From Clostridia bacterium (GTDB taxonomy: Bacteria > Bacillota > Clostridia > Oscillospirales > CAG-382): 64,000 nt of DNA. The DNA is taken from contig JAFSGD010000017.1 of NCBI GenBank assembly GCA_017434845.1, positions 3,121 through 67,120 of the forward strand. Reading direction: 5' to 3'. A model generated the notes under the pieces. The model saw only the letters and a list, made by a program, of their open reading frames with translations, had not been told where the DNA came from and did no database searches. The translations under genes were made by a program, and so were the position numbers. Position 1 is the stretch's first letter. Every line of letters begins with the position of its first letter. Of this stretch, positions 1 to 6,066 are shown piece by piece.

Positions 1-132
1 ATCGTAATATTCTTAATTGTTGATGCCAAAAGATATAAGAAATACAAAAAAGAGCTTTTAAGCCAACTAACATCTAAATCGTCTGATTGTAACGGCGATT
101 GTGATAATTGCCCCTGCTCTCAAGAAGAATGA
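1..132 (+). CDS. 3' end of an upstream ORF (partial): hydrophobic segment plus Cys-rich tail
   Basis: Frame 1 is open from the window edge to TGA 130-132: IVIFLIVDAKRYKKYKKELLSQLTSKSSDCNGDCDNCPCSQEE*. Resembles small TM proteins with a C-terminal Cys cluster (FeoB-associated Cys-rich type; recollection only). Confidence 0.3.
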   Translation: MVIFLIVDAKRYKKYKKELLSQLTSKSSDCNGDCDNCPCSQEE

Positions 133-145
133 TAGGAGAGAAGAA

Positions 146-1786
146 ATGAGTACAAATATTTCAAAGCAAAAACGTGAGGATCTCCTTGCGAAAATAAAAG
201 AAATACGCACGTTTATTTCTGCTGCACCGCAGGACGAGAACACAGGCAATCTTCTCTCCTACCTTTCGGAGCTTGAAAAAGATGTGTGCGGCAAAAAATA
301 CGGTCTTGTATTTGAAGAACATCGTGAAGATATTGACGAGGTACTTGCCACCCACACGCCCGTCCTGACTGAGCAGAGCGACCTCTTTATTGATAATGGC
401 GGCGAAATAAACTTTCTTATTGAGGGTGACAACCTTGCTTCGTTGCAGTTGCTCGAAAAGACACACAAGGGCAAAATCGACCTTATCTACATAGATCCGC
501 CGTATAATACAATGAGCACCGGTTTTACATATTCAGATGCTTTGGTTGATAATGGGGATAATTACCGACATTCTAAATGGACTTCTTTTATGAAACATCG
601 TTTGGAACTTGCCCGAACCTTACTATCGCCAACAGGATGTATCTTTATTTCTATTGATGACAACGAATTTGCGGCACTCAAATTAGTTTGTGACGAGGTA
701 TTTGGTTATCAAAATTTTGTTACAACTTGTATGTGGCAAAAAATCCATAGCATAAAGAATGATGCCAAATATATTTCCGTTAATCACGATTTCATTTTCG
801 TATATGCTAAAAATATTGAACTGCTCAAATTTAATCTACTTGACAGAACAGACGAGATGAATAACCGATATAAAAATCCAGACAACGATCCAAGAGGTCC
901 GTGGCAATCGGGGGATTTGGTTGCAAACGAAATACGTACAAATGGTAATTATGATGTAATAGGACCTACGGGCAAGATTTTTAATGTACCAGAAGGTAAG
1001 CACTGGGTGTACTCAGAAGAAAATATGCGAACCTTAATTGCTGAAAATAGGATTTGGTTTGGCAAAGATGGAACTTCTTTTCCACGCAAAAAGCGTTATT
1101 TATCAGAAGTACAACAAGGACGTACGCCTGATTCTTGGTGGACAAGTGCAGAGGTCGGACATAATCAAGAGGGTGCTCGTGAGCTTAAGGCTGTTTTTGA
1201 TGGCAAGGTAGTATTTACCAACCCCAAACCCACACGCCTTATTGAACGAATTATCAAAATGGGTTCAAAAGATAACAGTACAATCCTTGATTTCTTTGCG
1301 GGTAGTGGTACAACAGGACACTCCATATTAAAGTACAACGCAAACAATGAGGGAAGTAATCGCCGCTTTATTCTTTGTACCAATAATGAAAACAATATTT
1401 GCCGGGAGGTAACATACGAGCGTATCAAGCGTGTGATCGAAAAAGAAGGTTATGCTGCTTCTCTCAAATATTACAAGGTGGATTATGTCCCCGTCAGCGA
1501 GCGTATGTATTACGAATATGCAGACGAACTGCTCTACCATATCCGGGAACTAGTAGAGCTTGAAAACGGTGTAAACTTTACGGGTAACGCCGAAGTCGGC
1601 ATTGTTCTGACCGAAGAAGAACTTGACGAATTTATCGCAGATACTGCTACTTTTGCAAAATGCCGCAAGTTGTATATGGGACACGATGTTTTGCCGAGCG
1701 ACGAACAGGAATGTGCATTGAAAAAGGGCGGCATTGAAATCGGTATTATTCCGGATTATTACTACAGGGATTTACAGGAAAACTAA
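146..1786 (+). CDS. mod: Type III-like DNA methyltransferase (Mod; N6-adenine/N4-cytosine, beta class)
   Basis: Likely start ATG 146 (GGAGAG 5 nt upstream); the track start at 101 would overlap the upstream ORF. Motif IV IDLIYIDPPYNT precedes motif I LDFFAGSGTTGHS. N-terminal LIEGDNLASLQLL box is typical of Type III Mod. Confidence 0.9.
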   Translation: MSTNISKQKREDLLAKIKEIRTFISAAPQDENTGNLLSYLSELEKDVCGKKYGLVFEEHREDIDEVLATHTPVLTEQSDLFIDNGGEINFLIEGDNLASLQLLEKTHKGKIDLIYIDPPYNTMSTGFTYSDALVDNGDNYRHSKWTSFMKHRLELARTLLSPTGCIFISIDDNEFAALKLVCDEVFGYQNFVTTCMWQKIHSIKNDAKYISVNHDFIFVYAKNIELLKFNLLDRTDEMNNRYKNPDNDPRGPWQSGDLVANEIRTNGNYDVIGPTGKIFNVPEGKHWVYSEENMRTLIAENRIWFGKDGTSFPRKKRYLSEVQQGRTPDSWWTSAEVGHNQEGARELKAVFDGKVVFTNPKPTRLIERIIKMGSKDNSTILDFFAGSGTTGHSILKYNANNEGSNRRFILCTNNENNICREVTYERIKRVIEKEGYAASLKYYKVDYVPVSERMYYEYADELLYHIRELVELENGVNFTGNAEVGIVLTEEELDEFIADTATFAKCRKLYMGHDVLPSDEQECALKKGGIEIGIIPDYYYRDLQEN

Positions 1787-1834
1787 TTAAAGAGAACGTA
1801 TTGGCTATTAGATCAATGCGATTATGGTGACAAA

Positions 1835-2986
1835 ATGAAAGAAGACAATTTTGCTGCACGAGTTGCAAAAAAGGTTAATAAAGAGTTTTCGGCAATGGAA
1901 AAGTCAGACTATGAAAATGAGCCGTATTACGCTCATCCAACCTTTTATATTAAAAATCTATCTGAATATATTCAACTGGTAACAACTATTTCATCAGTAA
2001 GTAAAGATGATTTACCGGGAGAAACAGTAATTTTTCGAGGTATAGCTGATTCTGAATATGATTTATCACCGGGTTTAGTACGATTAAAAAACGTGGAAGA
2101 GAACACAGAAAAAGAGTTGATAAATGACTTTCTTACCCATCGTCCCGATGCTTTTAGTGGCTTGACTGATTTTGACATCTTAGCAAAAATGCAGCACTAC
2201 GGTTTACCAACAAGATTGTTGGATTTCTCAATAAATCCACTTGTAGCGTTATATTTTGCGTGTGAATCCAAAATGTCAAAAAACGGACGTATATTATGCC
2301 ATAATACATTCCTACAAAATGATTCTGAGGCTTATATAAGCGAAATTTGTACTGCTGCAATTAGAAAGAATTTTGAAGAAAACTTTTTAGTTGATGAATA
2401 TCTATGCAATGAAGATTTAACTTTATATAAATATTTGGCTCGAACTTATATGTATAATGAAACCACTGTAGTAAGGCCAAAATATTGGAATCAACGTATT
2501 GCAAACCAAGCTGGTGTGTTTATGATTTTCTCCAACAATTTGCTTGACCGATACAAAAGTGTTTTGATACACGCAGAGGAAATGGGTACAGGTACAGCAA
2601 TTAAGGAATATGGTCGTGGAAAAATTGACGAAGATATTATAAAAGAAGCCTTGTCAAAAGAACCCGTTGACTACTATAAAAATGACGGAAATAACTATTT
2701 ATCAAGCGAATGCTTCAAGACTATGTACAACTCATACAAGAGCAAAGAATATGAAGAAGGCTACTGGGATAAAATCAAAAAATACTTTGAGAACAGATTT
2801 AAAATGTCTTGCGAATTAAAGCCGCTAGACACTAAGATCATCAAAGATGGTTTTTGTAGTATTATAGTAGATTCGAAATGCAAGAAAAAGATCCTTCGTG
2901 AATTATCCTATGTGGGTATTGGAGCCGATTACATATACCCAGAACTTGAATATACAGCTAAAGAGATTAAAAGGCGGTTTGAATAG
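1835..2986 (+). CDS. FRG-domain protein (function unknown) embedded between mod and res
   Basis: VIFRGIADSEYDLSPGL, MQHYGLPTRLLDFSINPLVALYFA and NQRIANQAGVFMIF match the FRG-domain signature as I recall it. The C-terminal ~140 aa has no motif I recognise. RBS GGTGA upstream. Confidence 0.8.
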   Translation: MKEDNFAARVAKKVNKEFSAMEKSDYENEPYYAHPTFYIKNLSEYIQLVTTISSVSKDDLPGETVIFRGIADSEYDLSPGLVRLKNVEENTEKELINDFLTHRPDAFSGLTDFDILAKMQHYGLPTRLLDFSINPLVALYFACESKMSKNGRILCHNTFLQNDSEAYISEICTAAIRKNFEENFLVDEYLCNEDLTLYKYLARTYMYNETTVVRPKYWNQRIANQAGVFMIFSNNLLDRYKSVLIHAEEMGTGTAIKEYGRGKIDEDIIKEALSKEPVDYYKNDGNNYLSSECFKTMYNSYKSKEYEEGYWDKIKKYFENRFKMSCELKPLDTKIIKDGFCSIIVDSKCKKKILRELSYVGIGADYIYPELEYTAKEIKRRFE

Positions 2987-3029
2987 CATTTCGCTATAAT
3001 CAATAACCACGTTTTATAGGAGTGATAGA

Positions 3030-5216: not shown

Positions 5217-5231
5217 TGGAGGTATTGGAAT

Positions 5232-5789
5232 ATGACTATTGACTCAATGGAAGTGGTATTCTACACATGTATATTTCTTTTGCCCGGATTTATCATCAAA
5301 AGCGTTATGGATACATTAGTACCTCCTGCTAAGCATAACGATTCCAAGTATTTCTTCTCCTGTTTGTTGTATAGCATTGTAAACTGTGCAATTTGGAGTT
5401 GGGCATATTTATTACTCAATAAGATTCCCGATAAGTATCCAATTATATATTGGATATCCTTGCTTGCTACAACTGTAATAGGTGCAACCTTACTTGCCGT
5501 TATTATCGGAGTTATAAGACAAAAGGGTGCAATAGAGTGGTTGTTCGAGAAATTGCACATCAATAAAATCCATCCCGCTCCTACTGCTTGGGATTATTAC
5601 TTTTCAAAACAGGAAGAAGCGTGGATCGTGGTTACTTTGAAAAGCGGTAAAACCATATATGGTAAATTTTCTGAACATTCTTTTTCATCTTCTGATTCCG
5701 AGGAAAGAGACCTGTATATTGAAAAAACTTATACTATTAAAGACGACATGACTTGGGAAGAAGAGAAAAGAGCAAGGGCATACTCATAG
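5232..5789 (+). CDS. Membrane protein, N-terminal 3 TM helices plus soluble C-terminal domain (DUF6338-like by recollection)
   Basis: Starts 15 nt after the res stop, with a GGAGG RBS. Hydrophobic segments VVFYTCIFLLPGFII, FFSCLLYSIVNCAIWSWAYLLL and IIYWISLLATTVIGATLLAVIIGVI. The C-terminus may be frameshifted (see findings). Confidence 0.7.
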   Translation: MTIDSMEVVFYTCIFLLPGFIIKSVMDTLVPPAKHNDSKYFFSCLLYSIVNCAIWSWAYLLLNKIPDKYPIIYWISLLATTVIGATLLAVIIGVIRQKGAIEWLFEKLHINKIHPAPTAWDYYFSKQEEAWIVVTLKSGKTIYGKFSEHSFSSSDSEERDLYIEKTYTIKDDMTWEEEKRARAYS

Positions 5790-5838
5790 CCAAAGAAGAA
5801 ATTGAAACGATAGAATTTTTTACATAAGGAGCAACAAA

Positions 5839-6015
5839 ATGAGCGATACAAAGAAACCCAATCCGAATACCAATTTCGGTTATCAACCAAATAGTGAACA
5901 GCGTGGCTATCAACCCAAAAAAGGAATTAACGAAGGATATCACCCCTCAAAATCGGTGTCTACTCAGCCTCCAAATAAAGGCTCCAACGTTCAGCCTGCT
6001 AAAACTGAAAAATAA
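5839..6015 (+). CDS. 58-aa hydrophilic peptide with GY(Q/H)P repeats (not in ORF track)
   Basis: ATG 5839 preceded by AAGGAG (5826-5831). Translates to MSDTKKPNPNTNFGYQPNSEQRGYQPKKGINEGYHPSKSVSTQPPNKGSNVQPAKTEK*. Directly followed by the operon terminator. Confidence 0.5.
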   Translation: MSDTKKPNPNTNFGYQPNSEQRGYQPKKGINEGYHPSKSVSTQPPNKGSNVQPAKTEK

Positions 6016-6020
6016 AAACG

Positions 6021-6066
6021 GGAGACGTAACAATTTGTTTTGTTGCGTCTCCAATTTGCTTTTTTA
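6021..6066 (+). terminator. Rho-independent terminator closing the mod-res operon
   Basis: GGAGACGTAACAA / TTGTTGCGTCTCC, a ~13-bp stem with one G-U pair, then AATTTGCTTTTTT. Confidence 0.75.

Follow-up and report, generated by a model that had tools for sequence, protein, structure and literature searches.

Do the tightly packed genes at the start of this stretch of DNA form one composite defence system, or are they separate modules that share an operon? The stretch, called the window here, comprises 64,000 nucleotides (nt) from a gut Clostridia bacterium (assembly GCA_017434845.1, contig JAFSGD010000017.1), and the block under study occupies its positions 1-6066. The block carries a restriction-modification (R-M) pair, mod and res, with a gene for an FRG-domain protein between them, and genes for a DUF6338 membrane protein and a 58-amino-acid (58-aa) peptide after res. 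A first-pass annotation had taken these five genes for a single composite system. Overall, ~90 related loci, designated here by L numbers, were compared with the block. We judge from this comparison that the block is probably a stack of separable defence modules on one probable transcript, and that it is the right-hand portion of a defence island with a mosaic make-up. Its features are as follows.

1..132, + strand: 3' end of the upstream gene, called TM258, cut by the window start; 258-aa protein with two transmembrane (TM) helices and a Cys-rich tail
146..1786, + strand: mod, with an ATG start; Type III beta-class N6-adenine DNA methyltransferase, 546 aa
1787..3029, + strand: variable slot between mod and res, holding an FRG cassette in the window
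1835..2986, + strand: FRG-domain gene, 383 aa; PADLOC PDC-S15 candidate
3030..5216, + strand: res, 728 aa; N-terminal superfamily 2 (SF2) helicase and C-terminal D...ExK nuclease motif
5232..5827, + strand: DUF6338 membrane protein gene, frameshifted; the called open reading frame (ORF) is 5232-5789, 185 aa
5839..6015, + strand: 58-aa peptide gene; hydrophilic product with three GYQP-type repeats
6021..6066, + strand: terminator-like hairpin with a 13-bp stem (6 GC pairs) at 6021-6052 and a T-rich tail

Gene content on either side of res

Res was sampled independently of FRG, in 80 metagenome loci whose Res is 75-92% identical to that of the window and in contigs carrying a 92%-identical Res. 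The contents of the slot were counted in the 77 Res-selected loci that have mod on the contig.

Empty slot, with a gap of 4-6 nt: 30/77 loci
slot125, an unrelated 125-145-aa membrane/coiled-coil protein: 44/77 loci
FRG: 2/77 loci
Other: 1/77 loci

Some gene is present in the slot in 47/77 loci, and the states are interleaved on the Res tree. L104 (slot125) lies beside L010 (FRG), L112 (empty) beside L020 (FRG), L103 (slot125) beside L060 (FRG), and the window clade (FRG) beside L062-L070 (slot125). The presence of FRG in only two of the sampled loci, and the swapping of slot states between near-identical Res proteins, do not support the proposal that the five genes form one composite system.

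DNA alignments locate the exchange. The window aligns with L070 over 155-1779 and again over 3029-6018, and bases 1780-3028 are not common to the two loci; L070 carries the same Mod (92% aa identity), Res (92%), DUF6338 and peptide as the window, with slot125 replacing FRG. Similarly, L010 and L104 have different slot contents and break at the same gene boundaries, although their DNA is 95.7% identical for 5.8 kb starting at the res ATG. As judged from these alignments, homology ends precisely with the mod stop and resumes precisely with the res start. No direct or inverted repeats suggestive of integron- or att-like site-specific insertion flank the slot at its boundaries. The simplest explanation would be that cargo is swapped by homologous recombination through the conserved 3' end of mod and 5' end of res.

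The commonest occupant, slot125, has an N-terminal TM helix and a long coiled coil, and 31 distinct variants were found among the 44 loci (examples are L062 6624-7001, L070 6627-6998 and L104 1345-1767). No family match was obtained for it. A relationship to the C-terminal domain of FRG, to TM258 or to an N-terminal extension of Mod that occurs in some relatives was considered and set aside, as BLASTP detected no similarity to any of them.

On the gene content of related loci, the position after res shows the properties of a second cargo site. A Hachiman-like pair occurs there in 55/75 Res loci. Its first gene begins 17 nt after res and encodes 229 aa, and its second encodes a ~771-aa helicase with a match to HamB (1.2e-57). 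The 229-aa partner gave no HamA or DUF1837 match. In most relatives, the pair is apparently fused into the R-M operon, as in the following examples.

L010: 5841-8842
L060: 11361-14380
L061: 11375-14391

DUF6338 and the peptide follow Res only in a sub-clade with Res at least 83% identical to that of the window, consisting of the window itself, L004, L005, L062-L070, L075 and L096. DUF6338 homologues of 43-65% identity are also found in the unrelated contexts of L148, L151 and L154, and each is followed by a ~60-aa ORF with three GYQP-type repeats. The settings of two of these are as follows.

L151: element that resembles a phage satellite and has VapE-like and small-terminase genes
L154: adjoins DUF4062-TPR, ThsB_TIR and caspase genes

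Because the pair of DUF6338 and GYQP peptide recurs in three unrelated contexts, it is, judged by its distribution, a two-gene module that stands on its own in mobile elements and defence islands. The first-pass annotation had described the membrane and peptide genes as welded to the R-M pair; their recurrence without Res, and the presence of the pair after Res in one sub-clade only, speak against that description. The literature searched contains no description of DUF6338 with a GYQP peptide.

The membrane protein matches DUF6338 (PF19865) at 1.2e-26; the match scores 94.1 bits where the cut-off is 26.5, and covers positions 13-184 of the 205 in the profile. Compared with L004, a 1-nt deletion between 5764 and 5765 shortens it from 198 to 185 aa in the window. 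In relatives, the 198-aa protein ends ~11 nt ahead of the peptide gene, and the 49-nt gap of the window is a product of the deletion. The ancestral C-terminus, EKSKGILIAKEEIETIEFFT*, is still readable in another frame at 5765-5827, and the lost strand, GILIxKxEIETIEF, is nearly invariant across the DUF6338 family. This truncated product is encoded identically by 11 contigs that come from at least five samples and all have the same chromosomal context, so that an assembly error is ruled out and the deletion is fixed in the window lineage.

An AF2 model of an intact DUF6338 relative (pLDDT 85.6) has three TM helices and a C-terminal Sm-like beta-barrel. The top 50 Foldseek matches to this model in the PDB are all Sm, LSm, Hfq or other small Sm-fold proteins, with E values from 6e-3 to 0.2 and TM-scores to the target of 0.5-0.7. 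The barrel would be cytoplasmic and the protein probably oligomeric, and with the peptide it makes up a separate module, which the frameshift cripples in the window lineage.

The peptide gene is judged to be real from its pattern of substitution, because the ratio of nonsynonymous to synonymous divergence (dN/dS) is 0.03-0.06 in comparisons with L096, L004 and L005. Relative to L062, there are 5.5 nonsynonymous and 29.5 synonymous differences. Its family has few members (31 representatives at E<=1e-3 in a set of 1.84 billion proteins), and searches of Pfam, PADLOC, NCBIfam and PHROG gave no match.

The restriction-modification pair and its transcription unit

Mod matches Pfam N6_N4_Mtase (8.9e-37) and, over its full length, the PADLOC model MTase_III (8.8e-115). 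Among PDB chains it matches EcoP15I Mod (4zcf_A, 8.1e-41) and the Type III Mod 6k0w_B (1.1e-54). As had been noted before, the DPPY motif (motif IV) is ahead of FxGxG (motif I) in the translation, which is a hallmark of Type III Mods. The protein is a beta-class N6-adenine methyltransferase (MTase) with a central target recognition domain (TRD), as expected of this class, and on these matches it is classified as a genuine Type III methyltransferase. An NCBIfam search of the block products returned generic MTase matches only. The central TRD-like region (~717-1247) has no DNA alignment to L004 or L005, whose FRG, Res and downstream genes are nonetheless 92-98% identical to those of the window; L070 retains the window-type Mod. 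Because the centre of mod differs in this way while its neighbours stay so similar, swapping of target recognition within the Mod family is implied by the alignments. No simple-sequence repeats of the kind associated with phase variation were found in mod.

The helicase part of Res matches Pfam ResIII (3.3e-19) and DEAD (3.1e-08). The motifs reported in the first-pass annotation, GSGKT, DESH and QTIGRIRR together with a C-terminal D643...E656-x-K658, are present as described, accompanied by SAT, and they are invariant in an alignment of eight Res relatives of 75-92% identity only. The match to PADLOC REase_III is weak and partial (1.8e-16, aa 134-371 only), no PDB chain, including EcoP15I Res, was matched with the single sequence or with a profile, and no profile confirmed the nuclease fold. 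Relatives are annotated in their sources as "type III restriction enzyme" or "restriction endonuclease subunit R". Because Res has no detectable solved structure and only a weak REase_III match, we term the mod-res pair Type III-like; the Res family is, on these searches, divergent and short. Mod would methylate its own site in host DNA, and Res would cut unmodified, invading DNA in an ATP-dependent manner.

All genes of the block are under purifying selection as measured by dN/dS. Between the window and L070, Mod and Res have dN/dS ~0.04 and their synonymous divergence is saturating (dS ~1.2), and because of this combination the mod-res architecture is considered to be old and maintained.

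The five ORFs are co-directional, with gaps of 48, 43, 15 and 49 nt, and the intergenic gaps contain no terminator-like sites, as had been claimed; the terminator scan also detected a weak 6-bp hairpin inside res (3698-3712). The strongest terminator-like hairpin of the block is indeed the one that closes it. This hairpin is also found in L157 and is common to L004 and L005, where DNA homology extends to 6148 and 6200, but is not common to L070 and L062, whose homology with the window stops at 6018. Of the GGAG-type ribosome-binding sites ascribed to every gene, four of five were found, and the FRG gene has a GGTGA-type sequence instead. The AT-richness noted earlier also holds for the block overall, with 40.2% GC in 1-6066 against 47.8% in the remaining window (rank 2 of 116, or about the most AT-rich 6-kb stretch), but it is uneven among genes. 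GC content is 33.6% in the FRG gene, 36.2% in DUF6338, 40.5% in mod and 45.5% in res, and the FRG gene is the most AT-rich 1.15 kb in the whole 64 kb.

The block is not a complete five-gene operon. Because bases 1-132 are the 3' end of the 258-aa gene, the transcription unit starts to the left of the window. Promoter scans of the block scored like shuffled sequence, and so do not define a transcript start.

The FRG protein and its relation to the R-M genes

The FRG protein matches Pfam FRG (PF08867) over residues 64-149 (4.8e-21, 75.9 bits against a cut-off of 25), 14 PADLOC PDC-S15 models (best 8.7e-49) and phrog_4962 (4.5e-38), and it has 3967 homologues at E<=1e-5. Members of the 383-aa subfamily share a conserved C-terminal domain that lies outside the Pfam match and ends in D-[YF]-IYPELE. 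Residues R68 (in the FRG motif), H121 and N224/Q225 are invariant. Frg proteins have been placed by the Aravind laboratory in the ADP-ribosyltransferase (ART) superfamily, as possible NADase immune effectors in prokaryotes (PMC9503650; PMC12522546). The window protein is probably a self-sufficient, single-gene effector of the abortive-infection type, which would consume NAD+ by means of a predicted ART fold. Such an effector would borrow the R-M operon for its expression and act as a second layer behind restriction.

The order mod-FRG-res recurs outside the window. An FRG alignment scanned against one genome per species revealed it, whole or as a fragment at the end of a contig, in L004-L010, L015, L020 and L055, and contig look-ups added L060 and L061. 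In all, this synteny was found in at least 10 species-level genomes and in several metagenome contigs, with FRG identity down to 58-62%. A lack of conserved linkage between the FRG gene and mod/res elsewhere, which the first-pass annotation had named as evidence against its own reading, was not what we observed. Full-length FRG orthologues of 54-60% identity are also found outside this R-M system, and these nest among the slot copies on the FRG tree. More distant proteins (36-37% identity) occur in further settings.

L012 and L013, FRG outside the slot: adjoins a ParE toxin gene amid housekeeping genes; no R-M nearby, full two-domain architecture
L011, FRG outside the slot: adjoins a serine recombinase
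L014/L057, FRG outside the slot: between an Eco57I-type MTase with a 1122-aa ResIII protein (Type IIG model match) and a TIR_2 protein
L018, distant FRG: at the end of a prophage, following lysin and recombinase genes
L017, distant FRG: adjoins a serine recombinase and DUF3990/HTH genes
L019, distant FRG: amid unrelated genes

FRG-domain homologues also reside on 257 plasmids and in P2-like phages near the right genome end, which is a site of variable anti-phage cargo in such phages. One phage example is a 454-aa hypothetical protein of Peduovirus P22H1 (L162, 30979-32343), whose FRG homology amounts to 31.8% identity over residues 39-235. In an Acutalibacteraceae metagenome-assembled genome (MAG; L006, 11196-11669), a 94%-identical FRG gene is followed by a res remnant matching Res residues 1-148 only, which looks like decay of the R-M system with FRG kept. 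Standalone orthologues and empty slots together argue, at the level of gene content, against an obligate coupling of FRG to the R-M genes.

Several points weigh against the reading as separable modules with FRG as a self-sufficient effector. In FRG-selected dereplicated genomes, 10 of the 14 orthologues with at least 54% identity are in the mod-res slot, and an eleventh adjoins another ResIII-type R-M system; this enrichment could reflect functional dependence and not hitch-hiking. The FRG cassette has no recognizable promoter of its own in the 48-nt gap and relies on the operon here, and co-transcription of the block genes is itself a probable conclusion that we draw from the spacing and from the lack of terminators between genes. 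The ART fold is a prediction that rests on the cited literature and not on the present structural search: although the AF2 model is confident (pLDDT 88.7), Foldseek found nothing significant in PDB (best E 0.7) or BFVD (best E 0.05), with low TM-scores. The top PDB entries, all non-significant, are the ARTs PARP14, pertussis toxin S1, cholera toxin, PARP13 and Arr. The literature searched offers no experimental proof of phage defence by any FRG protein, and nothing relevant that links FRG to R-M or to anti-phage defence.

These points bear on an alternative in which the R-M complex is a guard in the manner of PrrC. It would hold FRG, and perhaps slot125, latent until a phage anti-restriction factor disables Mod/Res and frees a suicide effector that depletes NAD+ or ADP-ribosylates targets. 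FRG lies between the genes for R-M subunits with gaps of 43-48 nt and without its own promoter or terminator, the slot is more often filled than empty, and the arrangement is kept down to ~58% FRG identity under purifying selection. The orthologues in the slot count in the same direction, as does the one beside another R-M system and a TIR protein, and prrC, embedded in the EcoprrI hsd locus, is said to work in this way. However, FRG orthologues of 60% identity keep both domains with no R-M nearby (L012 and L013), the slot is empty in 30 Res loci and contains FRG in only two, and PADLOC treats the family as a single-gene candidate. Moreover, the differences in slot content between near-identical Res proteins leave no co-adaptation with Res evident. 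We regard guarding by the R-M complex as unlikely on balance, though it is the main rival to the modular reading.

A broader form of the idea would make the slot, throughout this widespread R-M family of gut Clostridia, a dedicated socket for interchangeable second-line effectors (FRG, slot125 and possibly others) under the physical control of Mod-Res, as a Type III analogue of PrrC-EcoprrI. Independently of this, DUF6338 and its peptide would represent an undescribed membrane module in defence or exclusion, perhaps a ring of three-TM, Sm-like subunits gated by the peptide. We consider this broader proposal unlikely.

FRG might, instead of being a defence effector, regulate the R-M system or act as its addiction element, for example by ADP-ribosylating Res or Mod to time restriction after transfer of the element. 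Its location between the two R-M genes would fit a role in timing, ART-fold enzymes are able to modify proteins or DNA, and the element is mobile, as relatives have integrase, Mob and relaxase genes nearby. Nevertheless, most members of the same R-M family are without FRG, the same protein is found far from any R-M system, and a Pfam search detected no helix-turn-helix (HTH) or other regulatory domain in it, which makes such a role very improbable.

That all five genes, or really six, make up one obligate machine of R-M pair, sensor, membrane effector and peptide is scarcely credible: tight co-directional spacing, a single strong terminator and the same six-gene order in L005, L157 and several samples of the same lineage are in its favour, but only near-identical relatives (Res at least 96%) have all of the genes, TM258 is replaced separately by an N-terminal extension of Mod, FRG by slot125 or nothing, and DUF6338 and peptide by the Hachiman-like pair or nothing, DUF6338 and peptide also occur without the other genes, and DUF6338 is frameshifted in the window lineage with the other genes intact, so that the comparative data have largely refuted this reading already.

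We favour the reading as stacked, separable modules. If it is right, the locus clearly illustrates how defence islands are assembled in nature: the conserved coding ends of R-M genes provide recombination handles, and guest genes are swapped at exact gene boundaries. Near-isogenic natural variants, with an empty slot, slot125 or FRG beside an almost identical Res, make it testable whether the guests act autonomously or through the R-M system. FRG/PDC-S15 is a candidate marked for experiment that has no experimental validation in the literature searched, and DUF6338 with its GYQP peptide is a second uncharacterized candidate.

Neighbourhood and comparison with known systems

The TM258 stop codon is 13 nt ahead of the mod ATG. 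Full-length copies of the gene are present in L001 (2377-3153) and L157 (454-1230), and the Cys-rich tail of the protein reads CNGDCDNCPC; neither Pfam nor PADLOC gave a match. TM258 is missing in relatives such as L004, L008 and L062, where Mod has an N-terminal extension of ~265 aa with a TM-like segment. The R-M family seems to be repeatedly tied to membrane-anchored parts. Upstream of TM258 is a gene for an AAA_14/DUF4143 ATPase (L001 1038-2231; L004 6189-7382) that matches PADLOC PDC-S01 (1.2e-147), and an AbiEi/AbiEii pair precedes mod in other relatives. The surroundings form a defence island carried by integrative mobilisable elements, which also have integrase, Mob_Pre, NikA-like and TnpV genes, and the upstream membrane-protein gene that is cut by the window edge would also be part of the island. 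The closest genome matches to the block are Oscillospiraceae/Acutalibacteraceae MAGs. No tRNA gene that might serve as an integration site was detected in positions 1-12000 of the window.

Two elements were observed between the block and the genes downstream. A short palindromic hairpin, TATCCGCTTTGCGGATG, at 6206-6222 is terminator-like on both strands and separates the block from downstream housekeeping genes. At 6310-6380 (+ strand), where AT-rich intergenic DNA lies between the block and a histidine phosphatase gene, a match to Gut-1 RNA in Rfam stays below threshold (32.3 bits, gathering score 50, E 0.0027).

Hachiman (HamA/HamB) is resembled by the HamB-like pair that follows Res in most related loci, but this pair is absent from the window, which has DUF6338 and the peptide at that position. 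Sm and LSm folds typically form rings, and three TM helices joined to an Sm-like domain recall the core of the MscS channel. The likeness of DUF6338 to these proteins is at the level of the fold only, with no sequence similarity, and a ring-forming DUF6338 membrane protein is a speculation from the model.

The window FRG resembles the PDC-S15/Frg clade in matching its profiles and in having orthologues in defence islands, at prophage ends, on plasmids and in P2-like phages. Orthologues in L012, L013, L017 and L018 are without partner genes, as judged by context only. Unlike such standalone genes, the window FRG is nested in an R-M operon.

Type III systems are characterized by ATP-dependent cleavage at two inversely oriented unmethylated sites and by hemimethylation by Mod. 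The window resembles canonical examples (EcoP15I and EcoP1I) in that mod is upstream of res, Mod is related to EcoP15I Mod, and Res, at the level of motifs, combines N-terminal SF2 helicase motifs with a C-terminal D...ExK motif. In ~39% of the relatives (30/77), mod and res are likewise 4-6 nt apart. Differences are that Res is short (728 aa), has no detectable sequence similarity to EcoP15I Res or to any solved structure and matches REase_III weakly and partially, that no phase-variation repeats were found in mod, and that mod and res are not adjacent in the window, as 1243 nt with the FRG gene part them. The literature searched does not describe any Type III locus in which a gene slot parts mod from res.

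Guest genes within Type I loci offer the nearest parallel. The PrrC anticodon nuclease is reportedly embedded in the EcoprrI type Ic hsd locus, where a masking interaction is said to have been demonstrated, and rlo genes are reportedly interspersed in Campylobacter type I hsd loci. The window shares with these loci an optional, unrelated effector-type gene between R-M genes that is co-expressed (probably so in the window) and whose identity varies by strain; the window and at least 10 other genomes have FRG in that position. Those loci are Type I and their effectors are RNases or others, whereas the window is Type III-like and carries FRG. Masking is known for PrrC, and FRG differs in also occurring alone elsewhere. 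If the PrrC-like reading were true, R-M-guarded abortive infection would extend from Type I to Type III systems. By analogy of arrangement, the locus is placed with R-M loci that have embedded guest defence genes, and prrC in EcoprrI and the rlo genes are its closest conceptual precedents.

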